Position numbers and translations under genes: made by a program | Notes under the pieces: model-generated | Databases searched by the model: none | The model's input: only the letters and a program-made list of their open reading frames with translations | What the model was told of the DNA's origin: nothing | Part shown: positions 2,962 through 56,910 of the stretch, one piece after another | Position numbering within the stretch: the stretch's first letter is position 1 | Layout of the letters: the number at the start of each line of letters is the position of its first letter | IMG/VR virus record: IMGVR_UViG_3300005537_000002 | Span: 64,001 to 128,000 of that record | Direction: 5' to 3' (one strand) | From: a virus | Length of the DNA stretch: 64,000 nt

Positions 2962-3003
2962 ATATTGTATAAGTATTCAAGCGTATACGAGGTTTTTAGC
3001 ACA

Positions 3004-4089
3004 GTGAGGTACACATTTAGTCCGTTCGTGACTAGGAGACCCAAGTTGCAGGAAGCAGTTGAGTACGCCACACCCATGTGGCGTACTCAGAGGCCTACAG
3101 TATTTCCTAAGTCGACTATGGACGTAATTACGTCATCTCCCCAGTTCGTTGACGTAGCTGTCAATAGTGGGTCGATGGTCTTCTCTCGTGCACTTGCTTC
3201 TCAACCTACTGCAAGCAATGACCAGAACATCTTCGCTATCGAGTCCTTAAAGTCGGTTTTGCAGTGTACTACCGACTTGAACGTGCCTAGAGACGACTGG
3301 TTCGAACGCTTCTGTGCTAACGTCCATCCAGACAACCTCAATTACGAACCCGGCTACATTACGGACCGGTTCGTGTACTCTCCTGCGAAGTCTAGGCCTC
3401 ACATGCTACGAAAGACAGCTGTGTACTTAGACACTCTACTGCAACGATACCCTACTTCACTTATGAGAGCTTGTGTGGGGTACGCTATACTGCGTACGTA
3501 TACTTGGCGAGAAGTGAGTTGGAGTAGACTGTCTAAACAGGGCAAGCTTATACAAGGGAGGAGGCCACACAAACTATGGGAGCCGATTTGTAGACGAGCT
3601 TGGTCTCTACGACTGGCAGCGGAAGAGTTTGCAAAGACTCCCACGAGAAGGCTACATCAAATATCGGAGACTAGCGTTCTACAGGCTATACGAACCTTCG
3701 ACATCTATACGGGTGCAGTCGTGTATGCAAACCCTCTGTGGCCGTGGATGTCCACAGACGACTGGTCCGCGTATAGTCAGTTTACCGCTGACCTGAACTC
3801 CATACTTATGCAATGTCCGGTCAAGACTTCCAACTGGAGTGACAATAGGAGCCTTGATACTATCTACAAGGAGGTGACTAGTTGGATTGAAGAATCCTTT
3901 GCAAGAGGCGCCGGATTCTTCATACTCAACACGCAAAGCTCTAACTTTCCACAACCTGACGACCTATATAGTTGGTTGAGAACTAGATACGGTCGTCATC
4001 TGCTACTTGTCGAAGAAGTAGCTACCCAAATTAGCGCCCAACAGCCGTTTTCTGAGTGGTTTGGAACTATCCGGAATCCGACACTATAA
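3004..4089 (+). CDS. Atypical DNA adenine methyltransferase-fold protein (paralog 1)
   Basis: Motif I-like FVDVAVNSG, motif IV-like YANPLW; colinear with 12143-13207. Start set at GTG 3004 from a GAGGT RBS and the paralog alignment. Confidence 0.55.
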   Translation: MRYTFSPFVTRRPKLQEAVEYATPMWRTQRPTVFPKSTMDVITSSPQFVDVAVNSGSMVFSRALASQPTASNDQNIFAIESLKSVLQCTTDLNVPRDDWFERFCANVHPDNLNYEPGYITDRFVYSPAKSRPHMLRKTAVYLDTLLQRYPTSLMRACVGYAILRTYTWREVSWSRLSKQGKLIQGRRPHKLWEPICRRAWSLRLAAEEFAKTPTRRLHQISETSVLQAIRTFDIYTGAVVYANPLWPWMSTDDWSAYSQFTADLNSILMQCPVKTSNWSDNRSLDTIYKEVTSWIEESFARGAGFFILNTQSSNFPQPDDLYSWLRTRYGRHLLLVEEVATQISAQQPFSEWFGTIRNPTL

Positions 4090-4748: not shown

Positions 4749-4964
4749 ATGGATGTAAAATCAACCCTTCGCATAGCTTTCCTACTTATTGGTAGGCAAA
4801 TCGCGGCTGAGTTTCTGTCACAGGCAGTTTGTAAGAGACTCGAGCGAGAAGATATACCAGATGACTCGTGGATGTCTGAGAGCCACGAGTATCCATTTCA
4901 CACTATCGTAGCTCAAGCTATGTGCGACGCTTTATTCGATATACAGAGTACCTCGCACGACTAG
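4749..4964 (+). CDS. Hypothetical protein
   Basis: AAAGG RBS; operon packing. Confidence 0.45.
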   Translation: MDVKSTLRIAFLLIGRQIAAEFLSQAVCKRLEREDIPDDSWMSESHEYPFHTIVAQAMCDALFDIQSTSHD

Positions 4965-6184
4965 AACGGAGCTTGTGTTTGAGCGAAAAAAGGAGGGTAC
5001 GACTTTTAGGTATTAGTCTCATAGTAGTGATGGTGCTGTTCATAGTGGTGATGTCGCTACTATTATGGAACTTACTACTCAAACCTACGGAGGTAAAACA
5101 TCATATGACTCTTAATACTATGGGTGGCTATGTATTTCCGGACGACGCAGTTTGCGACGCACCTAGTCAGTACTCCGACGGAAGGGTTATCAATACTCTT
5201 AACGTCGAGTATCTACATGTTGATTCTGGTGGAGCACTTGTAACCCTGACTAGTGGGTGTAACGCGTATAACGACTCGAATGTAGCTTCTGTCAAAGCAC
5301 ACAGCAACAGGCAGTTCGTAACTGTCAGTGGGGATAGTGGTGGGTTTCAAGTACTCATAAGCGATACTCAGCTTACAAACACCTTTATCAGTACGGTACA
5401 AGCATTTCTCTCGAAGATAGGGTTTACCGGAGTTGAGTTGGACTTTGAGGACTTCGGTTCTTGGACTTCCTCTCAGTATGCCAGTTATGTAGCGTTCGTC
5501 AAACGTCTTAGTACTGAGTTGCATAGCACAGGGCACTTACTAGCTATCGACTGCCCAGCGATATCCGACCAAACCTATCAGAGCTACTATCCTCACTGGT
5601 CATATAAAGACTTCGACGGGGTTCAAGTAGAGTTACGCGTGATGGCGTACGACTACGAATACGACCAGGGTGCAGGTAATCCGATAGCGCCTATAGACTG
5701 GATCACCAACATTTGTAAGTGGACTAGGTCTCAAATCACTGATCCTAGTAGGATCACTATCATACTCAACTCTTACGGGTACCACGGAGTGAGAAATAAG
5801 TACGCCGCTAATCGAGATACATACAGCCAGTCAAAAGCCTACTACGGTTTTAATACAGCTTCAAGGGATGCTTCTTCTGGTGAGATGACTTGGTCTGTAG
5901 GGGGCGAGGTCTACTACTATACGGACAGCGAAACGTTGAACCAGAAAGTGACCGCTGTGCTAAACTCTGGTACGGGTATCAACAACATTGCCATCTTCCA
6001 CTTAGGTGGAGGAAACAAGTGGCCAACGGTTACTCCTCCACCTACACCGGTGTCCACACCAACAGTTACGAGTGACGTGTCTCCAGCACTCTCTTCTCTA
6101 CTGAAGTGGATGGAAGCCGAACTACCGAGTTGGTACGCAGCTAACTTCGACTCGACTGGAAAGTATATTGGAGGTAGTCACTAG
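4922..6184 (+). CDS. Membrane-anchored GH18 (chitinase-like) glycoside hydrolase
   Basis: N-terminal TM helix; GFTGVELDFE (DxDxE-like, catalytic E kept); VMAYDY; PIAPIDW; P/T-rich linker. Start uncertain. Confidence 0.8.
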   Translation: MRRFIRYTEYLARLERSLCLSEKRRVRLLGISLIVVMVLFIVVMSLLLWNLLLKPTEVKHHMTLNTMGGYVFPDDAVCDAPSQYSDGRVINTLNVEYLHVDSGGALVTLTSGCNAYNDSNVASVKAHSNRQFVTVSGDSGGFQVLISDTQLTNTFISTVQAFLSKIGFTGVELDFEDFGSWTSSQYASYVAFVKRLSTELHSTGHLLAIDCPAISDQTYQSYYPHWSYKDFDGVQVELRVMAYDYEYDQGAGNPIAPIDWITNICKWTRSQITDPSRITIILNSYGYHGVRNKYAANRDTYSQSKAYYGFNTASRDASSGEMTWSVGGEVYYYTDSETLNQKVTAVLNSGTGINNIAIFHLGGGNKWPTVTPPPTPVSTPTVTSDVSPALSSLLKWMEAELPSWYAANFDSTGKYIGGSH

Positions 6185-6651
6185 TGCCATCAACGTATTA
6201 CGAGGACTATGTAATACCTCCACCATTTACATTACCAGCTAAACAGGTTGGACAGATGACTCTACCGGAAGCGTTATCGATGGCACAGTGTGTAAGCGAC
6301 CCGTACGCTAAGAGGCGTAGGAAGGGGTATAGCATGATCACTGTGCTATATCTGCTGACGTATAGCGTGGTTGCGTTCGACATAGATAGTATAGTTTACT
6401 GGAACATCGAAACGTGGACCTTTCGAGTCGTGCTGTGGATAGCAGTTATGATAGTATGGGCTAACTTCGTTAGCGGAACCCTACGTATACGGCCGACTAG
6501 ACGGCAGGTTGTAGAGATGGCTACGACACTAAGTATGAAAGCAGTCTCGATCTCTAAGCTGGCACGCGGTCGGAAAATCTCTTTCCCAAAGGTTATACCA
6601 AACGAGGATACCACTACCTACTTAAGAGCCATTAAGCGGAAGCTAACGTGA
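6184..6651 (+). CDS. Two-TM membrane protein, possible synthase accessory subunit
   Basis: Two hydrophobic helices; overlaps both neighbouring genes. Confidence 0.5.
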   Translation: MPSTYYEDYVIPPPFTLPAKQVGQMTLPEALSMAQCVSDPYAKRRRKGYSMITVLYLLTYSVVAFDIDSIVYWNIETWTFRVVLWIAVMIVWANFVSGTLRIRPTRRQVVEMATTLSMKAVSISKLARGRKISFPKVIPNEDTTTYLRAIKRKLT

Positions 6652-7994
6652 GATCTGTTTATAAAAGTATTACGTATAGTGCATTGTGGATGGTTACGGC
6701 TGCTATAGCAGCTTCAACTAGGTTTATACAACCGCATCCATTCGATACGCCGTTTCTCGATACGATGAGACACGTTATAGTCTTCTTTGCGTCTATACTA
6801 CTAGCGAAATACTTCTTCTATATGGTAGTAGCTCCATTCTACGACGTAATAGAGAGTCGCAGAGTCGTTACTACGCTTATGGCGGACTACTACCCGTTAG
6901 TGTCAGTGATGATACCTGCCTGGAACGAAGAGGTAGGTCTACTAGGTACGGTCAAGACGCTACTAGACTCCACCTACAGACATGTGGAGCTCGTCATTGT
7001 GAACGATGGTAGCACAGATGGCTCGCACGCAATGATGCTCAACTTCGTCAGTAAGTATAACGAGCAGATGACTGACGTACCCGAGTACAAGCGCATACGT
7101 ATACTCTACCACTACCAACCAAACGGAGGCAAGGGAAGCGCACTAAACACAGCGATCCAACTGTCTCACGGAGCTATACTACTGTCCATTGACGCTGACT
7201 GTCACGTTCACGCCCGCTGTATTGAGGAGTTCGTGAACGCATTCCGTAACCCTAAAGTTATGGCTGCCGTCGGTAACGTGAGGGTAGGCAATACAAAGTC
7301 ACTCGTGGGTACAATCCAGTACCTAGAATATATCTTCGGATTCTACTTTAAGAAAGCGGACAGCTTGCTCAACACCATCTATATTATCGGTGGAGCGGCT
7401 GGTGCATTCCGGCGGGAAGTGTTTCAAGTGATTGGTGGGTATAATACCAAGAACATTACGGAAGACATTGAGCTATCCGTCCGAATACAGGAACAAGGTT
7501 GGAAAATCGTTTACTGTCCTGGAGCACTCGTACTAACTGAGGGAGCGTCTACACTCACAGGCTTGAAGAAGCAACGCTACCGTTGGAAGTACGGTCGGTT
7601 CCAAACGTTTATGCAGCATCGCAACTTGTTCTTCTCGACTGAGCGTAGGCATAACAAGTTGCTGTGCTGGGTGATACTACCGCTAGCGATATTTGGGGAG
7701 GTGCAACTCGGACTTGAGTTACTATTTATCACTATGCTATACGTATTCGCACTCCTATCGGGTGACTTCTCGGCATTTCTGAGTGGTGTATTTGTAGTCT
7801 CTCTCATGTTCGGCGTACAAGCACACGACAGTGGAGAGTTCAACATCAGCACTCTACTGCTAGCACCTATAGGGTGGCTACTATTCTACGTCACCACCTA
7901 CGTCGAGGTGTACGCACTTATCCGGAGTATATGGAATCTAATCCGCAAACGCGACGTACAGTGGCAGAAGTGGAAACGAACCGGTGTACAATGA
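6648..7994 (+). CDS. Processive GT2 glycosyltransferase (PgaC/IcaA/cellulose-synthase-like)
   Basis: IPAWNEE, NDGSTD, GGKGSALN, DAD, TED, QRYRW (QxxRW) and flanking TM helices. Confidence 0.92.
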   Translation: MRSVYKSITYSALWMVTAAIAASTRFIQPHPFDTPFLDTMRHVIVFFASILLAKYFFYMVVAPFYDVIESRRVVTTLMADYYPLVSVMIPAWNEEVGLLGTVKTLLDSTYRHVELVIVNDGSTDGSHAMMLNFVSKYNEQMTDVPEYKRIRILYHYQPNGGKGSALNTAIQLSHGAILLSIDADCHVHARCIEEFVNAFRNPKVMAAVGNVRVGNTKSLVGTIQYLEYIFGFYFKKADSLLNTIYIIGGAAGAFRREVFQVIGGYNTKNITEDIELSVRIQEQGWKIVYCPGALVLTEGASTLTGLKKQRYRWKYGRFQTFMQHRNLFFSTERRHNKLLCWVILPLAIFGEVQLGLELLFITMLYVFALLSGDFSAFLSGVFVVSLMFGVQAHDSGEFNISTLLLAPIGWLLFYVTTYVEVYALIRSIWNLIRKRDVQWQKWKRTGVQ

Positions 7995-8893
7995 CAAACA
8001 AAGAAAAAGGGTTCACTATGGCGGTGTGTATAAATTGTGGAAAAGGACTTTCTCTATGGAACAGACTTGTGAGACAGACCATATGCAGTGAATGTGGTGA
8101 ATACTTTCAGAACGAACGTTATAGGTGGCTGTCTGCGATCGAGAGGGACTTTTCTAGAGGAGGTGTATCCTTAGAGTTGGAGACCCAAATGTATCAACAC
8201 TTCCAAAGTATACATATGCCTGAGTATGAAGGCATCCCTGTCATAGAAAAGATGAGATACTTTAGAGAACTTTCGGAAGTGCAGTGGGGTAATGTACCAA
8301 CCATTCGTATAGATAGGCATCTAGACTCAGATGAGTACGCCTACTTCTCGTTCGAGACTACGTACTATAATAAACAGCTAAGACCCGTCGAGGGTATATT
8401 GGTAGGTACTAACAAGAAGTGCTACTTCCACCCCATATCTGGCGTAGGTGGAGTACATATCAATTGGGGTAATATAAGCCAAGTGAAGGAGGAGTCCGTA
8501 CGAGTATACACCCATCCCAGACCTCTACGAGGTGTTACAGAACAGTTGGTAGTCAAGAGGGTTTTAAGAATCTCCGTATCTGCCAGTTCCGGTGGAGGGG
8601 ATTACTACGTAAGAGACCCGTTTAAGGCTTGTATCTACATCGACACTCTTGTACGTATTTGGAAGAGACAACTAATCATTCGTAGAGAGTTAGGCACATA
8701 CGGAGACGTACCTAATCACGTAAAGTCTGATGTGTATAAACGAGATAAGGGATGCTGTCAACAATGCGGCTACAGTGGGGACTACATCGAGTATGACCAC
8801 ATCATACCTCGGAGTAAGGGAGGGTCGAATACGGTAGATAATATACAACTTCTTTGTAGGAGATGTAATTTGCAAAAGGGAGATAGGCTGTAA
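7991..8893 (+). CDS. HNH endonuclease with an extended N-terminal region
   Basis: RDKGCCQQC...EYDHIIPRSKGGSNTVDNIQLLCRRCN; N-terminal CxxC pairs. Confidence 0.85.
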   Translation: MTNKEKGFTMAVCINCGKGLSLWNRLVRQTICSECGEYFQNERYRWLSAIERDFSRGGVSLELETQMYQHFQSIHMPEYEGIPVIEKMRYFRELSEVQWGNVPTIRIDRHLDSDEYAYFSFETTYYNKQLRPVEGILVGTNKKCYFHPISGVGGVHINWGNISQVKEESVRVYTHPRPLRGVTEQLVVKRVLRISVSASSGGGDYYVRDPFKACIYIDTLVRIWKRQLIIRRELGTYGDVPNHVKSDVYKRDKGCCQQCGYSGDYIEYDHIIPRSKGGSNTVDNIQLLCRRCNLQKGDRL

Positions 8894-8919: not shown

Positions 8920-10167
8920 TTGAGTCCGTATACAGCAACCGTCAAGAAGAGACGGTCACGCAAACTATATACTAAGTACGATGCTATAGTACGGTGGGTA
9001 GTCGTGGCATGTGCTAGCATGTTGTTGAATGCAGCATTATTAGATGTCGCATTATGGATATACCCCTTACAGAGTCTGAGTCAGCTAGTAGTGTGGAATA
9101 CGCTGGTGTCAGCTATCGCTTCGATATGCGGCATGGTAGGGTATCGATTGTGGGTATTGGGGAGATACCGTATGCTAACAGCAGAGGAGTTCGGTAAATG
9201 TCTATCTATACTCACTTTCGAGTCTTTGGTGGACACGATGTTAGCTGTACTAAGCCAGTTCGCTAGTATTATGCTAGTGGGAGACTTATTACCCACTACT
9301 ACTATGAAACTAATTGCGGTTATAGGGACGTTCATCCTGTCCACTGTGCTACTTAAACAATGGATGGGTAAGAAGCCTGTATATGAGTGCATCATGAAAC
9401 CTTCTCGAGCGTCTATACGTAGACAACACTACACGTTGTCAGTCGTAATGGTAGCACAGGACAATGCGGATTATATTCAGCATACTGTACATCAAATGTA
9501 CGAGTCCCTAACGTACATGGTCGATGACTTCGAAGTCATCGTAGTCAACGACGGTAGTGCCGATCATACAGGTGTGCTGTTAGAGGCTATATCTATCATG
9601 ACCCCGCGAGTTAGGGTAGTGAATTACGCCAAACCTCGAGGATACTCTACAGCTTTAGCGACCGGACTCAAACTAGCGTGTAAGGAACTGACATTCATTA
9701 CCTCTTCAGACGACCAGTTCGACATACAGGATCTAGCGTTCTTCCTTCCGTATATGTGTGAGTACGACGCGGTTTTCGGTTACCCCTTCGGCGAGACTGG
9801 CAGTCGTTTCGAGAGATTCTGTACGTGGAGTTGGAGTACGTTAGTCAGTCGGACGTTCGGACTTAACGTAAGAGACGTCGACTGCGAATTCAAACTATTT
9901 AGAACTGACTTCTTTACGGACTATGAACTGACTGTCACTGACTCTCGCTTAGTGTATGTAGACATGTTGTATCAGTTAGCACAGTCGGATAGGTCGTATA
10001 CCGAAATGGGCGTACTACAAACACCAACTGTACTAGAACGTAAGAGAGACACAAGCCTGCTGAGCTTGGTTAAGAACGCGTCTGCACTACGAAAGTATGT
10101 TAAGGAACGGAAAATCAGTAGTTACGGGCACCACCTACACTCGAACGCTGCGATACGTACCTCTTGA
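8920..10167 (+). CDS. GtrA-like membrane domain fused to a GT2 (polyprenol-phosphate glycosyltransferase-like) domain
   Basis: Four N-terminal TM helices; LSVVMVA, FEVIVVNDGSADHT, GYSTALATG, RDVDCEFKLFR. The DxD site reads SSDDQFD. Confidence 0.75.
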   Translation: MSPYTATVKKRRSRKLYTKYDAIVRWVVVACASMLLNAALLDVALWIYPLQSLSQLVVWNTLVSAIASICGMVGYRLWVLGRYRMLTAEEFGKCLSILTFESLVDTMLAVLSQFASIMLVGDLLPTTTMKLIAVIGTFILSTVLLKQWMGKKPVYECIMKPSRASIRRQHYTLSVVMVAQDNADYIQHTVHQMYESLTYMVDDFEVIVVNDGSADHTGVLLEAISIMTPRVRVVNYAKPRGYSTALATGLKLACKELTFITSSDDQFDIQDLAFFLPYMCEYDAVFGYPFGETGSRFERFCTWSWSTLVSRTFGLNVRDVDCEFKLFRTDFFTDYELTVTDSRLVYVDMLYQLAQSDRSYTEMGVLQTPTVLERKRDTSLLSLVKNASALRKYVKERKISSYGHHLHSNAAIRTS

Positions 10168-10678: not shown

Positions 10679-11185
10679 GTGGAAAGCACAGTTACGTACA
10701 CAGTCGAAATCAGGCCGCCAGCAAAGGGAATGGTAAATCCAGTAAAAGTGTTGCTGGCAGCAGTCAATGGTGGTAACCCTACGAAAGTGGAGCTACCGCC
10801 GAACTCTAGAATCGGTATCGACTGGGGCAGAACCTCAGACGGTATGATATCCGACGGTACGACCCTGCTAGGTATGATGATACTAGCGCACTTGTTTGAG
10901 GAGACCGAACAGGTCGTCTCGAACGTTAAGACCGGACAGAAGTTTACCTGTTACGATAAAGCCTATGGGACAGGTAAGTATCTAGGTAACCGCTCGAAAT
11001 CGAAGCGATACCTAGAATACTTCGTTAGGGAGTATCTATCCAGACGAACAAGAACGAGCGGGTTCAGCGTCACCAAAACTGAAATTCTGCGAATGGCTAA
11101 CTCACAAGAAGCCGCTATTCGCAAGTCGATTGCAGATGCCGGTGTCAAAGTACCTGCAGGCGCGAGAAAGGTTGCTACTGCATGA
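10679..11185 (+). CDS. Hypothetical protein
   Basis: GAAAGGAG RBS; operon packing. Confidence 0.65.
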   Translation: MESTVTYTVEIRPPAKGMVNPVKVLLAAVNGGNPTKVELPPNSRIGIDWGRTSDGMISDGTTLLGMMILAHLFEETEQVVSNVKTGQKFTCYDKAYGTGKYLGNRSKSKRYLEYFVREYLSRRTRTSGFSVTKTEILRMANSQEAAIRKSIADAGVKVPAGARKVATA

Positions 11186-11505
11186 TCTACGTCGACTTCC
11201 TCATCAACCGTAGTACAGCAGGCGGAGGAAAACCACCAACTAAAAGCTGTAACATGTGGTCGAGCGAGCTAAACACTCCAGAAGGCTTGTTGGAGTTGCA
11301 TGAAGTAGCAGGACTACTAAGGGTACGTCAGTACTTTAGAGACCGACCCTACTTCCCACATTACGACCTCAACGAGAGCCAGCGTAAGCGGGCTCTCGCA
11401 CTGAGAAGGCCAGATGGTACTCCTTACGTCGAGGAAACGAGTTTGATCAACTTCTTCCGACCAAAAGCTCAATCAGTCGAGGAGGCTGTAAGCGTTCAAA
11501 GTTGA
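11182..11505 (+). CDS. DUF4031-like protein
   Basis: MIYVD...ELHEVA...HYDL...R.RAL pattern. Confidence 0.65.
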   Translation: MIYVDFLINRSTAGGGKPPTKSCNMWSSELNTPEGLLELHEVAGLLRVRQYFRDRPYFPHYDLNESQRKRALALRRPDGTPYVEETSLINFFRPKAQSVEEAVSVQS

Positions 11506-11521
11506 ACGCTTACATATTTGT

Positions 11522-12127
11522 ATGATAGACAGTCACGCTAAGCTCGTAGTGAAGCATAAACACTCGAAGACTCATTTGGGTCCGGAAAAAGGATGGCACG
11601 AACACGTGCTACCGATAGCAACCATATACAGTGGACTGCAGGATAGTGACATAGTGAGTTGGTCTGTTCAAGTGTTCAAATCCCTCGTCGGAGAACCTCC
11701 TCCCGCTCCAAACGCTCAGTATGATAAGAAGTACTTACGGCTGCTTATGCCCCTAGTAAGCTGGGAGAAGCTAAACAGGGTCGTGTACGACCCTGTACTC
11801 CAACCCTGTGTGGAAATACAGGTAGGAAATCTGTCACTTATCTGCAGCGACGATCAAGAGTTCATCACTCCGGACATAGGTTGGATACCCCTAGACCAGC
11901 TGAAGCCCCGACAGTACATTATGATGAACACTGTACGCGGTAGAGCACAGTACGCTCGTATCTCTCAGATCAAGAGAGTCTCGTCTCGTACGGGCTATAA
12001 CTTAGACTGTAGAAACTTTGTAAGCAACGACTTTATTAGCAGGTCGCCACAATTCGTAGCCGGTTATCCCATACCGAAGCGAATAGCTATGGCTGAGATA
12101 CTCGACTCGCCCACAGACATTCTATAG
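11522..12127 (+). CDS. Stand-alone degenerate Hint (intein-like) domain protein
   Basis: LICSDDQEFIT.DIGW...QLKP (block B), GYNL..RNFVSND (block F/G); no Cys1, no TxxH, no terminal HN. Confidence 0.55.
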   Translation: MIDSHAKLVVKHKHSKTHLGPEKGWHEHVLPIATIYSGLQDSDIVSWSVQVFKSLVGEPPPAPNAQYDKKYLRLLMPLVSWEKLNRVVYDPVLQPCVEIQVGNLSLICSDDQEFITPDIGWIPLDQLKPRQYIMMNTVRGRAQYARISQIKRVSSRTGYNLDCRNFVSNDFISRSPQFVAGYPIPKRIAMAEILDSPTDIL

Positions 12128-12142
12128 AGGAGATGCACTGTC

Positions 12143-13207
12143 GTGTTAAAGCCATTCAGTCAAATCGTTAGAGTACCCTCTACGGTAGGGTCTCTACCCT
12201 ACATCACATCATACTACCAATCCCCCTCTTGTAAGACCCTACATACTAAGTTCTGGCCCCTAGTCGAACAGCACACACAGTTTATAACGCTCTCTGCTGG
12301 AAACGGTGGAGTTGCATACGAGGCTGCGAGTAAAGGACTTAAGGTTGCGGCATACGACCGTTCGGTGTACACGATACTCTCGCTAGACGACGTACTCAAC
12401 CGAGATACGCTACCTCAACTATCCTATGACCTGCCTACCAACGAGTGGTTCGAACGTTGGTGTTCTCCTATTACACCTAGTACCACCAACGTAGCACAAG
12501 AAGGCGTACTAGTTGCCAGACATACGACACAGTTAGCTCCACACCTTTCGCTCGAGACTGCTAAGTACCTAGACACCTTACTCATCTGCAAGAACTACTG
12601 GCCTCTATTGATGAGTTCGATTGGCAGAACGCTACTACAACTGTGCTCCAATCGGGGTGTACGCTGGTCGAACTTAATGCCAGACGGTAGATCGACTAGG
12701 GAACTTACACCGGAAGAAGCCTTTCACTCGATAGCTAGGAGCACCTGGCGTACGAAGATGTTCTCAGACAGTTTGGATCACCACCTCGAGCATAACCTGT
12801 TCCAGCACAGCCTATTTGATGACCTACTGTCAGACTTCAGAGACTCTATATACCCAAACACACTCGTACACATTGATCCGGTGTATCCTTGGGAGACCTC
12901 ACTATATGAACGCTCTCATCACTACTTCTGTATGTCAGCTATCGACAGTATCCTAGTGCAGTCGGAATCAGCGTCAGTTCGGTCACCTTCGTACTGGCCC
13001 TCTACTATCTCAACCGACCTGACACTTTGGTTAGCTTGGTTTGGTGAGAGGCTACGTCGACTAAAGGATCGTACGGAAGCTACAATCGTAGTGACGTTTG
13101 GGTATCCCACTCCGACTGTACTTGAGACTGCTAGGTATCTTACGTCGTTGCTCCCTACTGCTAGTTGGGAGCAGTCGATTGCTGGTTGCATGCTTGTTAT
13201 CCATTAG
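12143..13207 (+). CDS. Atypical DNA adenine methyltransferase-fold protein (paralog 2)
   Basis: FITLSAGNGGVAYEA..KGLKVAAYD (motif I/II), VHIDPVY (motif IV variant). Confidence 0.65.
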   Translation: MLKPFSQIVRVPSTVGSLPYITSYYQSPSCKTLHTKFWPLVEQHTQFITLSAGNGGVAYEAASKGLKVAAYDRSVYTILSLDDVLNRDTLPQLSYDLPTNEWFERWCSPITPSTTNVAQEGVLVARHTTQLAPHLSLETAKYLDTLLICKNYWPLLMSSIGRTLLQLCSNRGVRWSNLMPDGRSTRELTPEEAFHSIARSTWRTKMFSDSLDHHLEHNLFQHSLFDDLLSDFRDSIYPNTLVHIDPVYPWETSLYERSHHYFCMSAIDSILVQSESASVRSPSYWPSTISTDLTLWLAWFGERLRRLKDRTEATIVVTFGYPTPTVLETARYLTSLLPTASWEQSIAGCMLVIH

Positions 13208-13216
13208 GAGCTGCCT

Positions 13217-13750
13217 ATGACGACTAAGTATTGTTGCGGATGTCAAAAATGGCTGTCGCTACATGAGTTTGGTAAAGACAAGTCGACTAAGGATGGTCTC
13301 AACGCTAAGTGTAAGGCTTGCATCAATGCTAGAGCCGCAATCAGCCGTGCGAAGCAGACTAGCGAGCAGTATGAGAGAGCGTCAGAGTACCAGAAGCAGT
13401 ACTATCGAGACCACCGAGAGCTGTTAGTAGCACAGGCTGCTATGCGTCGGGAGACACAGCGAGAGCATATACGGGCGATTGACAAGAGGTCTCGCTTAAA
13501 GCATAGGGCGAGCACGCAAGCTAGTACGTCTGCGTACCAGGCACGTCTGAGAGGTCAGTACGTAGCTCCGGTCTCATTGGACGTACTGTACGCTAGAGAC
13601 AAAGGAGTCTGTGCTTTATGTGGGGAGCCAGTCAACCGGTCAGAAGCCTCTATCGACCACATCGTACCCCTGTCGGAAGGTGGCTTACACGGTCCAGATA
13701 ACGTACAACTCGCCCATCGCAGTTGTAATTCTCGAAAGCAAAACGGTTAA
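13217..13750 (+). CDS. HNH homing endonuclease
   Basis: N-terminal CxxC..F.KD....DGL...CKAC; RDKGVCALC...IDHIVPLSEGG.H..DNVQLAHRSCN. Confidence 0.88.
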   Translation: MTTKYCCGCQKWLSLHEFGKDKSTKDGLNAKCKACINARAAISRAKQTSEQYERASEYQKQYYRDHRELLVAQAAMRRETQREHIRAIDKRSRLKHRASTQASTSAYQARLRGQYVAPVSLDVLYARDKGVCALCGEPVNRSEASIDHIVPLSEGGLHGPDNVQLAHRSCNSRKQNG

Positions 13751-13782
13751 ATATGTATTAGTGGGCACCCATTTTTGTGCTC

Positions 13783-13812
13783 TTGTAAAACACCATGTCG
13801 AACATTTATAAT
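13783..13812 (+). promoter_or_regulatory. Sigma70-like phage promoter
   Basis: CTC-TTGTAA-18-TATAAT. Confidence 0.7.
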
Positions 13813-13840
13813 ATATAATAAGAAGTAAATACTACTTCTT

Positions 13841-14068
13841 ATGCGAACAGACCTTGGAGGTTATATGCATAGATGTGTAAAGTGCGGTGCAGGGGATGCA
13901 AAGTGGAATACGAAGAGAGGCTGGTGGTGTGAAGATTGCGTACTAGCCTACCAAGGCCCACTCGCAGACTTAGTTGAGGGCATCCACGTAGCTATCGAGC
14001 TACTAGAACCAGCTATCGAACGGGCTAAACGGAAGCTTACTTCTACGAGACGTCCGTACTTGAACTAA
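13841..14068 (+). CDS. Small zinc-finger protein
   Basis: CxxC...CxxC; GGAGG upstream of the internal ATG. Confidence 0.55.
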   Translation: MRTDLGGYMHRCVKCGAGDAKWNTKRGWWCEDCVLAYQGPLADLVEGIHVAIELLEPAIERAKRKLTSTRRPYLN

Positions 14069-14127
14069 GACCCTCACATACAACTGCATATTGCACCCCA
14101 GAAGTGCAGACAGAAAGGTGAACACCG

Positions 14128-14289
14128 ATGACTGTTACTGCAGACACTTCACAAAGGCACTCGCTGCTTATGCTGGCGAAGTGCTCCACTTGCGGACTCT
14201 GCGACCAAAACGACTTCAAACCCGTACATGGGTACGGCAACCCCAACGCAAGGGTCATTTCTAGATATAGAGGTGATCATGTTCTCTAA
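14128..14289 (+). pseudogene. Orphaned original 5' end of the DNA polymerase gene (53 aa)
   Basis: Not in the ORF track. With a GAAAGGTG RBS it translates to MTVTADTSQRHSLLMLAKCSTCGLCDQNDFKPVHGYGNPNARVI|SRY..., nearly identical to the polymerase N-terminus SLLALCKCSTCGLCNQNDFKPVMGYGNSGARVIF. Confidence 0.85.
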
Positions 14290-14988
14290 ACCTTGTACGA
14301 AGTGTAGCGCTCCCGAAAGGCAGAAGGGCCAGTCTCTATGCGTAACCTGTCAACGTGAGTACGAGAGGCTGTGGCGAGAGAAAAATAGAGAGAAGATTAA
14401 CCACCAATACAAACAGTGGCGTGCGAATATGACAGAAGGTCAGCGCGAACGTGAAAGAGAATCCGGTAGAAGAGGAGAAGCAAAAGTTCGACAGAAGTTA
14501 CTCGAATACAGACTAGAACACCCGTGCATCGATTGTGGAGAGACTAATCCTATATGTCTACACTTCGATCATGTAACCGGTGAAAAACGTATGGATATCA
14601 CCCACTTACGAACGTACGGGTGGCCAAGCGTAGAAAAGGAACTTCAAAAATGTGTAGTGCGATGTGGGAACTGTCACGTCAAAAGACACTTCCTAACTAA
14701 AGGTACTACAAAGTACGGACCTAGTAAACATCTCTCGAAAGCAGCGAACGCTAGGAGAGATGTGTTTAGGCGCTATCTCCAACTGTGGGGGTGTATAGAC
14801 TGCGGTTTACAAGATGTAGACTGTTTGGAGTTCGATCACGTCTTCGGAGAGAAGTTAGCAGACGTAAGTATACTAATCGACAACGATACCAAAACTGGGA
14901 GGCTACAGTCGACGAAATCGCTAAGTGCGAAGTAGTCTGCGTAAACTGCCACGCTAAACGTACTGAGAGTAGGGGGTATCAATGGTAG
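14279..14988 (+). pseudogene. Tandem double-HNH endonuclease with a frameshift near 14885-14895
   Basis: Two CIDCG...FDHV.GEK modules. The second module's KCEVVCVNCHAKRT is in the -1 frame and ends at 14988, overlapping the pol ATG. Confidence 0.75.
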
Positions 14989-17900
14989 TAGAAACTTCAT
15001 GGGTGGGTTCAGCAGACAGAAGTCTGCTAGCACTATGCAAGTGCTCAACTTGTGGTCTATGCAATCAGAATGACTTCAAACCAGTAATGGGTTACGGAAA
15101 TAGTGGAGCTAGAGTTATATTCGTAGGGGAAGCAGCCGGCCGTAATGAACATATCCAGGGTATCCCGTTTGTAGGAGAGTCCGGTAGGCTCTTGACAGCT
15201 GTGCTCCAAAGGGTACAGCTGTCAGATGGAAGTTACCTGCAAAGAGATGACGTCTACCTTACGAACGCTTGTCTGTGTCGACCAGAAGACAATCGTACAC
15301 CGTCAGCTGCAGAAATCGTGGCTTGCAACGAGCGTTTGAAGGCGGAGATCAAATCTCTTCCTAACCGACACTTGATTGTAGTGTTGGGTAGTAGTGCGAT
15401 CAAGGCTGTAACTGGCAAGCACCAGAGTATGAACGCCATGCACGGTAAGATTGAGTGGAGTGCTGAGTTTCAGTGCTTCATTACGTATACGTGGCACCCA
15501 GCGTACATATTGAGGACTCCGAATGACTTTCCTGACCTTGACTACGTCATGAGTCAGATACCGAGCATTCTGGATACGCCTAAAGGGCCTATCCAATTTC
15601 AGCCGCCGAAGTATATCGTAGAAGACTCCATCGATATGGCGATTAAGCGATTGCTACACTTGCTTGATCACGTCGAAGGTGATGTCGCTTGTGACATCGA
15701 AACGACCAACTTGGAGTTAGCACAGCCAACTAACTTCATTCTCGAGATCGGCTTCTCTTGGGAGGATGGAAAGGCGTACATCTTACCTCACCACATCTTC
15801 AACGACAGTCAAGTGAAGGTAGTACTGATACGCTTCCTGGAAAAGAAGAGTGTGCGGTTTGTATACCACAACGGGATGTTCGACATTGCGTGGTTGCGCT
15901 ACAAGTTGGGAGCTAAACAGGCTTGGATTGGTGCGGACACGATGTTGATGTCTTCACTCTATGATCCAAGAGGTAGAGGCGGTGGAGAAGGAGATGAAGT
16001 GCAGGGGGTTGGAACGACACACGGCCTAAAGCCATTAAGCCGCAAACACTGTCAAGCACCAGCTTGGGAAGATGACATTCATGCGTACCTTCCGAATAAA
16101 GAAGCGAGCTTCGAACTCATACCGGCAGATGTCCGACAGAGGTATATGAGCTTCGACTTGGTGTACACGTTACGGCTCTTTAGGAGACTAACAGAGCTGT
16201 TAGAAAAGGAAGATCCCTCCGCTGAAGGTTACCCAACTCCACTTGAGTGCCACTACAATCTGCTCATACCCGCGGCTAACATGCTAGCGGACATTGAGTC
16301 TCACGGTATCCTCATCGACCGTAAGTACGTGGAGGAACTGAGAGACAAGATGGAAGAGCAGATGCGGGTCTCTAACGAGAAGATCCGAGAGGCCACTAAA
16401 GAATTCTTCAGACGAGACGGTCAAGAGATTACGTTACGTAAGTCGAGAGACGAAGAAGTAACCGAGCGTAAACGTAAGCTCGTAGGTACAGAAGTCCGGT
16501 GGAAAGCACGTAAGCGATATGACAAGTCAGCTAAGGCTTGGGTGCCGGACACTCCTGTACCGGACGGAGTGAGACAGCTGTACGAATACGAGTACATAAC
16601 TAGGGTAGTTAAGAGGTACTATGACGTTGTGCTTAGGGGTGAAGAAGCCGTTGAACACCTAGCGAACGAGTTCAACGTACGCTCTGCTTTACACTTACGA
16701 CACATTCTCTACGACCACTTAGGCTTACCGCCAGTTGAAGGTAAAGAAGTCACTGACAAAGATCAACTAGAACGATACAAGCATGCTCACCTCATTATTC
16801 CACTCATAATGGAATACAAGAACGTGAACCGGCTATATGGCATCTTCATCAAAGGGATGCTAGCTAGATTAGATCCGTATGACCGGTGTCACCCACGATT
16901 TAACATTCATGCAACTCGTACAGGACGATTGTCGAGTTCTAATCCTAATAGTCAGAACATCCCAAGGGATGGACTCATCAAACGTATGTTTACCGTTCCA
17001 AAGGGATACGTTTTTGTCGAAAGTGACTATAGCGGACTTGAGTTCACTGTCATTGCGTGGTACTGTAACGCTCACGTCAATCCAGCATTCCACGATCCGA
17101 CTTTAGCACAGGACGTAGCTGGCGATATCCACCAAGCCTTTGCTGAAGAAGCGTTCGCAGAGCTACTAGCGAAGATCCGAGCGAACAAACGTAGTCTATC
17201 GGCGCTCGAACAGATCATGCGTGAAGAAGTTATCATGACGGAGAAGCGCATCGAGCAGGAGCGAGATAAGCGAACCGATCCGGAGGAAGTAGCTTCACTA
17301 ATGCTGAAGCACGCACGCTTTATGGCAAAATTCTGTACCTTCGGCATTTTGTACGGACGTTCGGCTCACTCGCTAGCGTTTGATGATGATGGTATGCACG
17401 TCTCTCTCGAACAGGCTGAGGAGTACTTACGTAAGTTCTTCGCTAAGTATAATGGCTTGTACAGATTCTTGCAACAACAAACAAAGTACGCACTCGAACG
17501 TGGTTGGCAAGAGATGCCTAGCGGTAGACGAGCGAAGTATCCGTTCATCACTAGAGACAATCGGTCCCAAATTGAACGTCAGAGTTGGAACTCGCCTATT
17601 CAGGGAGGTGCAAGTGACATTTGCTTAGGGGCCTGTATAGACCTACAGAAAGAGCTAGTTGCTAGAGGTTGGGGTTACGTGCTCTTCATTGTACACGACG
17701 CTATCATGATGCAACTAAAAGAGGAGCATATGCATGAAGGTATTGCTCTTATGAAGTCGATCATGGAAGGAGTCACACAGAAACTAAAGTCGCCAGTTGA
17801 CTTTAGGGTTGAGACTAAAGTCGGTAAGAATTGGGGTGACGCAGTCGACATAGAAGTGGAGCACGAACTAGTACACCACCATACTAAAACTGCACACCAC

Positions 17901-18032
17901 GAGATTTCCAGTGACTGTTTCCAGTACGTGTTGTACACGTACACTGACAGCGAAACAGGCTTACCCAAAACGAAACGAGTCCCGCTATGTTCAGTACCGG
18001 TTGAAGACAGACAGGCAACTGTGCTAGCGTAA
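14982..18032 (+). CDS. polA: Family A DNA polymerase with N-terminal family-4 uracil-DNA glycosylase domain and 3'-5' exonuclease
   Basis: UDG: GEAAG, YLTNACLCRP, HPAYILR, four Fe-S Cys. Exonuclease: DIET, HNGMFD, YMSFD. Polymerase motifs A (SDYSGLE), B (RFMAKFCTFGILYG) and C (VHDA). Confidence 0.95.
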   Translation: MVVETSWVGSADRSLLALCKCSTCGLCNQNDFKPVMGYGNSGARVIFVGEAAGRNEHIQGIPFVGESGRLLTAVLQRVQLSDGSYLQRDDVYLTNACLCRPEDNRTPSAAEIVACNERLKAEIKSLPNRHLIVVLGSSAIKAVTGKHQSMNAMHGKIEWSAEFQCFITYTWHPAYILRTPNDFPDLDYVMSQIPSILDTPKGPIQFQPPKYIVEDSIDMAIKRLLHLLDHVEGDVACDIETTNLELAQPTNFILEIGFSWEDGKAYILPHHIFNDSQVKVVLIRFLEKKSVRFVYHNGMFDIAWLRYKLGAKQAWIGADTMLMSSLYDPRGRGGGEGDEVQGVGTTHGLKPLSRKHCQAPAWEDDIHAYLPNKEASFELIPADVRQRYMSFDLVYTLRLFRRLTELLEKEDPSAEGYPTPLECHYNLLIPAANMLADIESHGILIDRKYVEELRDKMEEQMRVSNEKIREATKEFFRRDGQEITLRKSRDEEVTERKRKLVGTEVRWKARKRYDKSAKAWVPDTPVPDGVRQLYEYEYITRVVKRYYDVVLRGEEAVEHLANEFNVRSALHLRHILYDHLGLPPVEGKEVTDKDQLERYKHAHLIIPLIMEYKNVNRLYGIFIKGMLARLDPYDRCHPRFNIHATRTGRLSSSNPNSQNIPRDGLIKRMFTVPKGYVFVESDYSGLEFTVIAWYCNAHVNPAFHDPTLAQDVAGDIHQAFAEEAFAELLAKIRANKRSLSALEQIMREEVIMTEKRIEQERDKRTDPEEVASLMLKHARFMAKFCTFGILYGRSAHSLAFDDDGMHVSLEQAEEYLRKFFAKYNGLYRFLQQQTKYALERGWQEMPSGRRAKYPFITRDNRSQIERQSWNSPIQGGASDICLGACIDLQKELVARGWGYVLFIVHDAIMMQLKEEHMHEGIALMKSIMEGVTQKLKSPVDFRVETKVGKNWGDAVDIEVEHELVHHHTKTAHHEISSDCFQYVLYTYTDSETGLPKTKRVPLCSVPVEDRQATVLA

Positions 18033-18034
18033 TT

Positions 18035-18077
18035 CAAGTGGGCACCTAGTTTATAAACTAGGTGCCCACTTGTTTTT
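18035..18077. terminator. 38-bp perfect palindrome plus T tract (intrinsic terminator) overlapping the next -35
   Basis: CAAGTGGGCACCTAGTTTA|TAAACTAGGTGCCCACTTG followed by TTTTT. Confidence 0.85.
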
Positions 18078-18099
18078 TGGTTATTAATTCATATATAAT
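18070..18099 (+). promoter_or_regulatory. Sigma70-like phage promoter
   Basis: TTGTTT-18-TATAAT. Confidence 0.7.
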
Positions 18100-18148
18100 A
18101 TTATTAGAGGTAGAAAGTCATTTATATCGAGAAAGGTCAACAAAGACA

Positions 18149-18583
18149 GTGAATGCACGAGAATTTAGGGAGTCAGTTGAGGACCGCTTAGCGCGTTTGG
18201 AGAGAGCCGTGTATCAAGACGACATCGGAGCTCCGTTAGAGACAGATACACCAGCTTCAGAGTTAGAGCAGCGTGTAAAGGAGTTTATGGAGAGTTGTAC
18301 TGTTCGGTATCGACGTAATCCGGAGGAGCATAGTAAACGTCGGAGTGACACCATCATCCGACAGGATGGTTGGAGAGCGTTTATACAGTGGGCAACAGAG
18401 AACAATCATGACATCGTTACGACACTAGGCAAGAACACGTTCTATAAAGCCGTCGTGGCGTTGTATCACCTGCCGTTGATGACAACGTATAACAAAGACG
18501 CTTGGGCCGGTCGGCGCTTTAACCTCGAGGGTAAGAGTCTACTCGACCGGTCGCTCGCATCAACAGAAGGTGTGAGTGAGTAA
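18149..18583 (+). CDS. Possible winged-helix DNA-binding protein (D5/primase C-terminal-like)
   Basis: EFMESC...W.AFIQWA.EN......GKNTFY pattern. Confidence 0.4.
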   Translation: MNAREFRESVEDRLARLERAVYQDDIGAPLETDTPASELEQRVKEFMESCTVRYRRNPEEHSKRRSDTIIRQDGWRAFIQWATENNHDIVTTLGKNTFYKAVVALYHLPLMTTYNKDAWAGRRFNLEGKSLLDRSLASTEGVSE

Positions 18584-18585
18584 AC

Positions 18586-19074
18586 ATGGCAGAGTGGAAA
18601 ATTGCGTTCTCCGGTGGGGCTTCGCTACTACCATATCAAGAAGCGAGTGTAAGGGAGATCACTACGGAGATCTTAACTAAATTCCAATCTAAACTCCCGC
18701 CTGGCGTAGAAGTTCGGGTCATTACTGGAGCCTGTGTTGGCGTAGACGCTATCGTCGCTGAAATAGCGCACGGGGCCGGCTTCTACGTACACACTTTCCT
18801 ACCTGCTAACCGATCGAAAGTAGACCCTTACTGGAACCTACACTGTACGGAGCACACAGAAGTGGGTGACGGTCCTGAGCCGTACAGGCTACGTAACCAA
18901 GCTATGGTTGACGCTGCTGACTCGCTCATCGCCTTTCCATGCACCCCCGAACGTTGGCCTGGCGGTACACTAAGTCGAGAGGGGACTTGGATGACCGTTC
19001 GAATGGCAGACAAAGCAAACAAGATCGACCGCAAAGCATGCATATTCCCACTATGGAATATGCCTCAACAATAG
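18586..19074 (+). CDS. SLOG-family (YspA/DprA-like) nucleotide-binding protein
   Basis: IAFSGG, ITGACVGVD..A, RNQAMVD.AD.LIAF, GTW.TV.MA. Confidence 0.8.
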   Translation: MAEWKIAFSGGASLLPYQEASVREITTEILTKFQSKLPPGVEVRVITGACVGVDAIVAEIAHGAGFYVHTFLPANRSKVDPYWNLHCTEHTEVGDGPEPYRLRNQAMVDAADSLIAFPCTPERWPGGTLSREGTWMTVRMADKANKIDRKACIFPLWNMPQQ

Positions 19075-41560: not shown

Positions 41561-42013
41561 TTGGCAAGTCAAACAGCACCTCGTTTAGCGGATACGGAGT
41601 TTGCAAATCGGTTACATCACGAGCTCTGGCCCTTTCACGGACATCCTAACGGTCCTAGGATGGCACAGATGGGTAACATTATGCAGGACCTGTCTAACTT
41701 AGCACAGGAGGGTGTGTACGTAGAACCCTCTTCCGTACGAGAGTACGTCTCGCTGAACCATCCTGAACTGAGTACGGGTAAGGATGTGGAGGAGTATGCA
41801 AAACTAGTGATGAAGGCTCACGTATTCTATCACCGGGAGATGCGAGACGTTGGTGAGACTCTAGCTAGGTCTAGCAAGCAGGAAGCTGTCAATGACAACG
41901 TTGCTACTACCAGGCCTAAGCTGCCTGTTAAGTCTATTGTACTGCATACGACTTGGATAGTTGTGTTTGTAGTCTGCATCGCAGTGATAGTGTTATACAT
42001 GCTACAGTCATAA
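41561..42013 (+). CDS. Hypothetical protein with a C-terminal TM anchor
   Basis: GGAGG RBS; hydrophobic C-terminus. Confidence 0.55.
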   Translation: MASQTAPRLADTEFANRLHHELWPFHGHPNGPRMAQMGNIMQDLSNLAQEGVYVEPSSVREYVSLNHPELSTGKDVEEYAKLVMKAHVFYHREMRDVGETLARSSKQEAVNDNVATTRPKLPVKSIVLHTTWIVVFVVCIAVIVLYMLQS

Positions 42014-42023
42014 GGGAGGTTTC

Positions 42024-42389
42024 GTGGACCACACACCATACGCACAGGAAGAGCTTCCGTATAGAGTCCCCAAACACGTGTGGGACAGAGCTAAGGAATT
42101 GTCGTACAAACTGCACGCTTTCGACTTAGAATCCGAGATGGATGCTGAAGATTGGTATCAGTGGGGCTTCATGTGGGCATGGGACTGCGTCCGTAGAGCA
42201 TACGCCGACTACTTACTAGAGGTCTGTACAGAGTCACTGGTCCAACTAATGCGAGGGCAACTCCAGTACGCTGTGCTATTCGACTCGCTGTTTAAGTCCG
42301 GCAACGATACACTATTCCCACTCGACATGGACGTCGGACTCGAACTCGCTAATTACGTGTGGTGTGAGCTGAAAGACTTGCCAAAGTAG
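42024..42389 (+). CDS. Hypothetical protein, paralog of 56511-56906
   Basis: W.+...+RRA+.+.L+E...+.GND.LFP...+D.++...+W. Confidence 0.6.
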   Translation: MDHTPYAQEELPYRVPKHVWDRAKELSYKLHAFDLESEMDAEDWYQWGFMWAWDCVRRAYADYLLEVCTESLVQLMRGQLQYAVLFDSLFKSGNDTLFPLDMDVGLELANYVWCELKDLPK

Positions 42390-42393
42390 GCTA

Positions 42394-56475: not shown

Positions 56476-56510
56476 GAGTATATGTCACACTACGATGATT
56501 AAGGAGAAGT

Positions 56511-56906: not shown

Positions 56907-56910
56907 GTCC

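Follow-up and report, generated by a model that had tools for sequence, protein, structure and literature searches.

The UDG-PolA gene of a 177-kb soil phage appears to have had its 5' end replaced by a free-standing HNH homing-endonuclease cassette, the mirror image of published cases in which a 3' end is exchanged; this is the probable, if by no means certain, origin of the locus. The genome (177,637 bp, record IMGVR_UViG_3300005537_000002) is metagenome-assembled, and the window is the whole stretch of 64,000 nucleotides that was analysed, with positions counted from its first letter. Along the + strand the order is a polymerase 5' stump, an HNH gene and a complete UDG-exonuclease-PolA gene, which are set out below with the neighbouring features.

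13783..13812, + strand: promoter-like site TTGTAA-18-TATAAT, with 10/12 matches to the sigma-70 consensus, the host probably not being a sigma-70 model organism.
13841..14068, + strand: ORF of 75 aa with a CxxC...CxxC zinc ribbon, directly 5' of the stump and downstream of the promoter-like site.
14128..14259, + strand: copy A, a UDG-PolA 5' end of 44 codons left as a displaced stump that retains a start and a ribosome-binding site (self-BLAST E = 1.4e-14).
14253..14278, + strand: RNA hairpin across the junction (predicted fold, -14.1 kcal/mol).
14260..14289, + strand: junction, in which the stump ORF runs through nine unrelated codons to its stop; it includes GAGGTGA, the ribosome-binding site of the HNH gene, and overlaps that gene's ATG at 14279.
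14279..14935, + strand: HNH endonuclease ORF of 218 aa (phrog_2255, E = 3.3e-27, in two stretches).
14760..14988, + strand: second HNH unit, broken (phrog_2255, E = 5e-8 for its 67-aa piece).
14982..15119, + strand: copy B, the working polymerase 5' end of 46 codons, recoded relative to copy A.
15120..18032, + strand: core of the gene for UDG (family 4), 3'-5' exonuclease and family A DNA polymerase, opening with FVGEAAG, which is UDG motif A.
18035..18072, + strand: strong intrinsic-terminator-like hairpin, a 17-bp stem and then a T run, right after the polymerase stop.

Nothing occupies the interval 14260-15119 except the HNH units, the ribosome-binding site before them and the replacement 5' end. 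Judged from its letters, the promoter-like site is a possible origin of a transcript running through stump, HNH gene and polymerase, while family searches with the zinc-ribbon ORF gave no match. HNH genes are frequent in the region, with two others at 7874-8893 and 13217-13750.

The polymerase ORF (14982-18032) is a single, full-length reading frame of 1016 aa. It unites a UDG domain (PF03167, 5e-29), a 3'-5' exonuclease (PF01612, 6e-11) and PolA (PF00476, 6e-66) in one protein, as is characteristic of the family 4 UDG-PolA fusions, and at least 60 homologs share the fused UDG-PolA architecture. This refutes one claim of an earlier, sequence-only reading of the DNA, namely that the HNH gene had split the polymerase gene. 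The N-terminus, ...SLLALCKCSTCGLCNQNDFKPVMGYGNSGARVIFVGE, aligns to the T. maritima UDG (1L9G/1VK2) from residue 19 and its CxxC lies within the UDG fold; copy B, with its own start and ribosome-binding site, yields a complete UDG fold.

Upstream of the HNH gene, the 53-aa ORF at 14128-14289 reads ...SLLMLAKCSTCGLCDQNDFKPVHGYGNPNARVI, followed by nine codons without relation to the polymerase. The ORF overlaps the HNH start with its stop (14287-14289) and has, 8 nt upstream, AAGGTG as a plausible ribosome-binding site. The 44 codons of this stump (14128-14259) are homologous to 14982-15119, the two copies lying 860 bp apart on the same strand, and a six-frame BLAST of the complete genome (177,637 bp) against itself returned the pair (E = 1.4e-14) as the sole gene-end duplicate of its kind. 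Over the 33 best-aligned codons (14161-14259 versus 15021-15119) 27 residues are identical and 6 are replaced, and weaker homology extends back to both start codons. Nucleotide identity over the same codons is 63/99 (64%), the identical bases being distributed as 26, 27 and 10 of 33 over first, second and third codon positions, and synonymous codons are used for 17 of the 27 identical residues. Two observations of the sequence-only reading are thereby borne out: that the small ORF, with a ribosome-binding site of its own, duplicates the polymerase start, and that the copies differ at many synonymous positions.

Third positions have diverged while residues have been kept, so each copy must have served as a functional gene end in a lineage of its own; in simulation, 36 random differences retained at least 27 residues in 0 of 100,000 trials. 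Copy A retains both N-terminal Fe-S cluster cysteines and 7/7 residues invariant among the nearest polymerases. Because the stump keeps its start, its ribosome-binding site and these seven residues, its displacement appears recent relative to the divergence of A and B. By this pattern of substitution the copies are old alleles, separately constrained, and not a recent in-place duplicate. The homology ends at ARVI|FVGE, two codons ahead of UDG catalytic motif A (GE-A-x-G), and 13/30 nt differ between the copies just before the junction. Homing endonucleases favour conserved sites, of which UDG motif A would be one, and the position at which the homology ends supports a target site of the homing type.

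Base composition also separates the two ends. GC3 is 28/44 (0.64) in copy A versus 0.30 in copy B (Fisher 0.003), the latter being the lowest value among 46-codon windows of the polymerase gene (0/924 lower; Fisher versus core 0.006), while the stump does not differ from the polymerase core (0.13). The low GC3 of copy B agrees with a foreign origin of this end, although the change point, based on 46 codons, is blurred over 15153-15315 and not sharp at 15120.

The endonuclease gene adjoins its full-length putative target, the HNH units (14279-14988) abutting the polymerase start at 14982. Its product is an HNH protein of the phrog_2255 type (about 150 aa), as established by profile match (E rounded to 3e-27), and the sequence-only reading was right to place an HNH endonuclease gene between an orphaned stump and a complete polymerase. 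The protein opens with a CxxC...CxxC zinc ribbon, after which comes a complete HNH core (residues about 83-133), so that unit 1 (residues 1 to about 150) is whole. The zinc ligands and the catalytic His, Asn and His are present, C83, C86, D97, H98, C129, N131, C132 and H133 are invariant with homologs, and all family-invariant residues are kept; the Pfam HNH models gave no match to the ORF at E <= 0.01. The homologs, of 147-162 aa, carry one unit only. Here no stop follows unit 1, and the ORF takes in the N-terminal half of a second HNH core. This unit 2 is about 49% identical to unit 1, is without the N-terminal zinc ribbon and is disrupted by the lack of a single base between 14884 and 14887. 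No canonical slippery heptamer is found at the frameshift site (GAT ACC AAA ACT). Apart from this lesion, the second half of unit 2 (ORF 14785-14988) is undamaged, and it ends in a stop that shares bases with the polymerase ATG (ATGGTAG, 14982-14988). This is the frame of the broken unit, whereas the frame from the HNH start ends at 14933-14935. The earlier suggestions that the HNH needs repair and that the polymerase N-terminus is translationally coupled to it hold in part: unit 2 has lost one base but unit 1 is complete, and coupling would apply to the frameshifted unit-2 frame and not to the translated frame.

The junction itself is predicted to fold. The last 7 nt of the stump and 4 further nt pair with the HNH ribosome-binding site, and the three outer pairs enter the AUG. 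The hairpin (14253..14278, -14.1 kcal/mol) has z = -3.85, was equalled by 0/200 shuffles and was flagged in a second analysis too. As modelled, it is likely to exert translational control over the HNH gene, being opened by a ribosome on the stump ORF. With the stump ORF terminating on the HNH start, and with the stump's final bases paired to the HNH ribosome-binding site, HNH translation is probably tied to that of the stump.

These observations may be joined in a homing scheme. The mobile unit would span roughly 14260-15119, perhaps to about 15300, and would consist of a ribosome-binding site, the HNH gene with its decayed second unit and a foreign, recoded UDG-PolA 5' end. The nuclease is proposed to cut nuclease-free polymerase alleles near the ARVI|FVGE codons, ahead of the conserved UDG motif, with the cassette-bearing genome serving as template for break repair. 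Homology on the right would come from the gene core, and on the left from the old 5' end or, in the first event, from an illegitimate join. The A/B DNA identity is only 64%, so any homology-driven step must have relied on the gene core. The recipient would gain the nuclease gene and an intact new 5' end without the target sequence, while its former 5' end would be shifted upstream as the 44-codon stump, still starting translation. The sequence-only reading had proposed such a cassette with a cleavage-resistant 5' end; as a published mechanism it stands as the most economical reading of the locus, with the resistance of copy B itself putative.

Nuclease genes that lie beside conserved genes and spread via double-strand-break repair, with co-conversion of flanking polymorphisms, are familiar from the T-even phages as SegF, SegG and MobE. 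Endonuclease genes of this kind lie between genes or split one (Aeh1 nrdA), and are not known to leave a duplicated target end. Hairpins that sequester the ribosome-binding site are documented for T-even homing endonucleases, where in SegF, SegG and MobE they control translation (PMC2988022), and the like is predicted here. The T4-type MobA is likewise a phage HNH cassette in an essential replication gene, bringing an element-encoded HomR homologous to the target region and having its own allele protected from cutting (bioRxiv 10.1101/2022.08.31.505936, citing Bonocora et al. 2011). As described there, MobA deletes 55-75 nt and splits gene 39/60 into two ORFs, with terminal extensions and a 50-nt bypass; by comparison with that account, at the present locus nothing is split, a bypass is unnecessary and the former end survives as a stump. 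A split-gene cassette of the MobA type was rejected, the polymerase being one 1016-aa ORF with all three domains.

Closer counterparts are found outside phages. In the WHO elements, described in Torulaspora and Lachancea yeasts, an endonuclease has on one side a resistant target gene of full length and on the other a displaced piece of that gene's former end, the same layout as here, and the unit consists of a nuclease gene and a resistance-conferring gene end, like the cassette proposed for the phage (Coughlan et al. 2020, eLife, PMC7282813). The WHO fragment serves as a homology arm, and divergence in the replaced end greatly exceeds that in the remainder of the gene (PMC7282813). In fungal mitochondria, a free-standing endonuclease ORF (mORF) travels with a diverged copy of the target end while the native end is left as a duplicate beyond the ORF, as in Allomyces atp6 and Glomus atp6, atp9, cox2 and nad3; native and inserted ends share 64-81% DNA identity, against 64% here, and encode near-identical protein (PMC3630166). 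The phage locus shares with both systems an endonuclease adjoining a full-length target, a displaced target-end fragment beyond it, and a fragment and working end that are diverged, constrained alleles. The differences are also clear. WHO elements replace the 3' end of FBA1 in the eukaryotic nucleus by means of an intein-like LAGLIDADG/zinc-finger protein, and the fungal mORFs, which are LAGLIDADG or GIY-YIG ORFs of organelle genomes, replace the C-terminal end and are often fused to the gene in frame, whereas in the phage an HNH gene accompanies the 5' end of a UDG-PolA gene, in mirror image. Moreover, for WHO allele-specific cleavage has been demonstrated and both empty and filled alleles are available, while the phage locus is known from sequence alone. 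By this analogy the cassette type would, with somewhat better than even confidence, be the one known from yeast and fungal mitochondria, the phage 5'-end version being its mirror image. WHO clusters follow a rule for the order of intact and decayed nucleases from which the order of units here departs. The degenerate HNH unit adjoins the polymerase and the intact one lies farther away, the reverse of the order from simple WHO-like serial insertions.

Relatives and empty alleles were sought widely. A distant-mode blastn of phage GenBank records gave no match to 13800-15600, and IMG/VR gave none with the polymerase as sole query; with a 5-sequence alignment it yielded 36 loci, none of which exceeded 38% identity over the best-matching segment or had a duplicated N-terminus. 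The stump, used as query for longer proteins, found no match in a collection of 5.8 billion proteins. Among JGI metagenome contigs, the A/B alignment gave 195 pattern matches, of which 0 were related, and the polymerase alignment gave a best match of 37% identity. Across the 5.8 billion proteins, IMG/VR and the JGI metagenome contigs, neither a polymerase above about 40% identity nor an A-type allele was found. The searches likewise brought up neither an empty nor a second filled allele, and the relatives are too distant for trees. The only synteny common to the relatives' polymerase loci is a QueC-like gene (474-2048), and the flanks are therefore uninformative on which copy is resident. None of the best 80 relatives of the HNH has a UDG-PolA gene within 4 kb or a duplicated target end, and among these there is no family-level tie between the HNH and a UDG-PolA target. 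Two loci of HNH relatives (L100 and L057) that were considered as bearers of a duplicate instead show paralogous HNH-like genes and an unrelated N-terminal repeat. The putative target specificity of the HNH for UDG-PolA thus rests on one locus. The evidence as a whole comes from one unreplicated locus of an uncultured phage, and in the open-access text of the phage literature no description was found of a homing endonuclease next to a duplicate of its target's 5' end.

A plain mosaic junction is the main competitor to the cassette, though a doubtful one. Two distant phages would have undergone illegitimate recombination inside the polymerase 5' end, everything to the right (or everything to the left) of 14260 coming from a parent with an HNH already upstream of its polymerase, with the nuclease uninvolved and the stump accidental. 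Phage genomes are mosaics, the HNH genes at 7874-8893 and 13217-13750 show how common such genes are nearby, the HNH family shows no preference for UDG-PolA genes, and no relatives display a cassette-sized insertion; furthermore, the synonymous saturation between A and B points to two distant parents, poorly suited to homologous repair. Such a junction nevertheless needs two coincidences, a break in the resident gene two codons before its top-conserved motif and a break in the other parent 19 nt before the HNH start, leaving just nuclease and gene start in between; it also forms a stable hairpin over the HNH ribosome-binding site. That copy B is a compositional outlier and the core is not suggests a short foreign tract rather than a whole foreign gene. 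An in-place tandem duplication of the 5' end, with later HNH insertion and decay of the upstream copy, would suit two copies 860 bp apart on the same strand, but third positions at the random level (10/33) beside 27/33 kept residues, a combination that unselected decay produced in none of the 100,000 simulations, and the difference in GC3 (0.64 versus 0.30, Fisher 0.003) make it very improbable.

An artefact that joined two strains into a chimera is conceivable for a metagenome-assembled record of only about 17-fold depth. It is nonetheless extremely unlikely, since a 16.8-kb Logan contig (depth 16.7) from a soil-metagenome run, produced by a second assembler, shows 0 differences over 13700-15700, with no alternative contigs or joints, and there is no shared sequence at 14259/14260 that a de Bruijn graph could have joined wrongly. 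The run probably derives from the source sample itself, hence from the same data and not an independent sample, so the comparison tests the assembler and not the biology. An intron of group I or II that encodes the HNH protein, with 14128-14259 as exon 1, exon 2 starting at 15120 and copy B serving as a decoy, is barely credible. Positions 14259 and 15120 do join in frame, and T would be the last base of the 5' exon; against this, the Rfam families gave no match in 11000-19000 with the threshold relaxed to E = 1, HNH coding sequence and copy B take up the whole 860 nt with no space for a ribozyme core, and copy B has its own start, ribosome-binding site and complete UDG fold. A look for RNA runs containing this DNA gave none. 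Group I introns end in a terminal G, and the base before 15120 is A. The intron was therefore judged unlikely on the Rfam null, the coding-filled interval and this A, in keeping with the sequence-only reading, which had favoured no intron.

Taking the end-replacing cassette as the preferred reading, a further and more speculative step would see the locus as an active member of an undescribed phage class of 5'-end-replacing elements, in which the stump acts both as left homology arm and as a leader ORF that opens the hairpin, and the tandem HNH units record successive invasions. The nuclease would then be made only while the polymerase operon is translated. If so, invading an essential gene with a resistant spare end, a strategy so far proven by WHO at the 3' end of a yeast nuclear gene and, in fungal mitochondria, described at 3' ends, would also work at the 5' end and in a phage replication gene, with the old promoter-proximal stump reused to drive and gate the nuclease. 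Stumps of this kind would readily be mis-annotated as small genes, and replaced gene ends may distort polymerase phylogenies. In addition, the point at which the stump ends (ARVI|FVGE) is probably where cleavage or recombination occurs, and it offers a substrate for a new HNH specificity.

The locus belongs to a 177,637-bp soil-metagenome record, an IMG/VR virus with direct terminal repeats of which the window covers positions 64001-128000, and its features are arranged on one strand as follows.

Features of the polymerase locus (window positions)
13841-14068, + strand, zinc-ribbon ORF of 75 aa
14128-14289, + strand, 53-aa ORF containing the stump (14128-14259) and junction codons
14279-14935, + strand, HNH endonuclease ORF of 218 aa, matching phrog_2255
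14785-14988, + strand, ORF in another frame after the HNH ORF, comprising the second half of HNH unit 2
14982-18032, + strand, 1016-aa ORF with family-4 uracil-DNA glycosylase (UDG), 3'-5' exonuclease and family-A polymerase domains
18035-18072, + strand, strong terminator-like hairpin after the polymerase ORF

Codons 1-44 of the 53-aa ORF (the stump, copy A) are homologous to codons 1-46 of the polymerase (copy B, 14982-15119), a pair which gives E = 1.4e-14 when the whole genome is compared with itself in six frames, a comparison that showed no further gene-end duplicate of this kind. Over the 33 codons aligned between 14161-14259 and 15021-15119, 27 residues agree, of which 17 are encoded by synonymous codons, confirming the duplicated, recoded polymerase start that a sequence-only reading had noticed on the two sides of the HNH gene. 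The homology ends at ARVI, after which the polymerase continues with FVGEAAG, conserved motif A of the family-4 UDGs, while the stump runs into nine unrelated codons that hold the HNH ribosome-binding site and start. This segment forms part of the UDG fold, with the T. maritima UDG aligning from residue 19 onwards, and it includes C21 and C24; these two, like C99 and C115, do not vary among relatives, and in family-4 UDGs the four cysteines bind the Fe-S cluster. It follows that a functional gene cannot do without the duplicated segment, and that the stump by itself cannot act as a glycosylase. The stump retains its ribosome-binding site and start codon, along with each of the seven residues that the nearest polymerases share without exception, and it belonged to a working gene until recently.

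Identity between the copies is distributed unevenly over the codon, with 26, 27 and 10 of 33 bases shared at first, second and third positions, respectively; third positions are at the level expected at random, so dS cannot be estimated. When the 36 differences were placed randomly in 100,000 trials, no more than 20 of 33 residues survived, as opposed to the 27 observed, which contradicts a local duplication. Together, the codon-position pattern and these trials indicate that copies A and B are old alleles, each evolved under protein constraint, rather than products of local duplication and decay. Base composition agrees with separate histories, in a suggestive manner only. GC3 of copy B (14/46) differs from that of the core, 15120-18032 (Fisher, 0.006), and is the lowest among the gene's windows of 46 codons (0 of 924 lower), whereas the stump (28/44) shows no difference from the core (0.13) and the two copies differ from each other (0.003). 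The tract is short and the GC3 change point is not sharp, with best positions at 15153 and about 15315.

The 218-aa HNH product matches phrog_2255 (HNH endonuclease, E = 3.3e-27) in two stretches. Unit 1, residues 1 to about 150, is complete and retains all the family-invariant cysteines, Asp-His, Asn and His, and it may well be active. A second core (14760-14988), about 49% identical to unit 1 and without the N-terminal zinc ribbon, continues from it without a stop; tandem cores in one frame are unusual for the family, whose homologs in databases have only one unit and are 147-162 aa long. This core is undamaged save for the loss of a single base between 14884 and 14887, its latter half being intact in the other frame and ending on the polymerase start (ATGGTAG). 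The proposal that the HNH gene needs repair thus holds for unit 2 and not for unit 1. Two nuclease genes may have fused recently, or the second core may be left over from a previous invasion of this site.

At the junction, an 11-bp hairpin with three outer pairs (14253-14278) pairs the last stump bases with the Shine-Dalgarno sequence of the HNH gene and with part of its AUG (-14.1 kcal/mol, z = -3.85; none of 200 shuffles folds as stably). Several phage homing endonucleases, for example I-TevI-III, segB and mobE, are known to be controlled by hairpins masking the ribosome-binding site (PMC2988022). With the stump ORF ending 8 nt past the start codon of the HNH gene, a ribosome that translates it would melt this structure, from which we infer that HNH translation is coupled to that of the stump.

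This arrangement is best explained, with reasonable probability, as an HNH homing cassette that replaced the 5' end of the UDG-PolA gene. The explanation keeps part of the sequence-only reading, namely an HNH cassette with a replacement 5' end, but not the claim that the polymerase gene was split, since that gene is one 1016-aa ORF with three domains. The main rival, an accidental mosaic junction with the HNH gene as bystander, is less likely: both breaks would have to be placed so that only the nuclease gene and a gene start separate homologous positions, and it does not account for copy B alone, not the whole gene, being compositionally odd. For an intron, Rfam gives no hit with E relaxed to 1, and there is neither non-coding space nor a terminal G. 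Against an assembly error stands a 16.8-kb Logan contig, probably from the same reads, which is identical across the stretch.

Known systems resemble the proposed end-replacing cassette in part. Yeast WHO elements, for which allele-specific cleavage is demonstrated, replace the 3' end of FBA1 each time they home, and the former end stays behind as a fragment acting as the homology arm (PMC7282813); fungal mitochondrial mORFs carry a foreign C-terminus (PMC3630166). The layout here mirrors both, with the 5' end involved instead of the 3' end in the case of WHO. Phage MobA cassettes likewise bring their own homologous substitute for the target region; they split the gene, however, and need ribosomal bypass (bioRxiv 10.1101/2022.08.31.505936), unlike the uninterrupted polymerase ORF. 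Open-access text yielded no phage study describing a duplicated target end next to a nuclease.

The nearest polymerases are 33-40% identical and none has a duplicated start, nor was an A-type allele found in a 5.8-billion-protein collection or in JGI metagenome contigs. Relatives of the HNH gene are frequent in viral contigs (296 of them); among the best 80, none has a UDG-PolA neighbour or a target-end duplicate. In four related marine or aquatic IMG/VR contigs (L029-L032, e.g. L031:6001-8681) the UDG/exonuclease and polymerase parts of the UDG-PolA homolog lie about 1.3 kb apart in different frames, which may reflect an insertion into the gene or a split gene. In another contig (L100:968-3406) a homolog of the HNH gene (2365-2814) sits between two paralogs from a different HNH-like family (968-1378 and 3002-3406, 67% identical), forming a small nest of nuclease genes.

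Elsewhere in the genome, about 11 kb before the window start, an ORF of about 950 aa (G000:C1:52784-55645, coordinates of the whole record) encodes a second family-A polymerase, 26% identical to residues 493-961 of UDG-PolA (self-BLAST E = 1.8e-33), so that one phage has two PolA genes. The 12 kb upstream of the polymerase contain a GATase-QueC fusion (474-2048; PF06508, 2e-50), a GH18-like gene (4922-6184) and GT2 glycosyltransferases (6648-7994 and 8920-10167). This set, with the HNH gene at 7874-8893, suggests 7-deazaguanine and perhaps sugar modification of DNA, and the QueC-like gene is the only neighbour shared with relatives' polymerase loci. Two canonical PF01844 HNH genes (7874-8893, in the same region, and 13217-13750) resemble each other at the C-terminus (47% over 51 aa); one of them is separated by just 380 bp from the stump downstream of it, and with the cassette there are three HNH genes within 7 kb. 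Further away, a 23-residue stretch recurs at 91% identity 14.5 kb apart (42373-42453 and 56857-56970), each time just after one of two weakly related paralogous ORFs (41991-42386 and 56499-56903).
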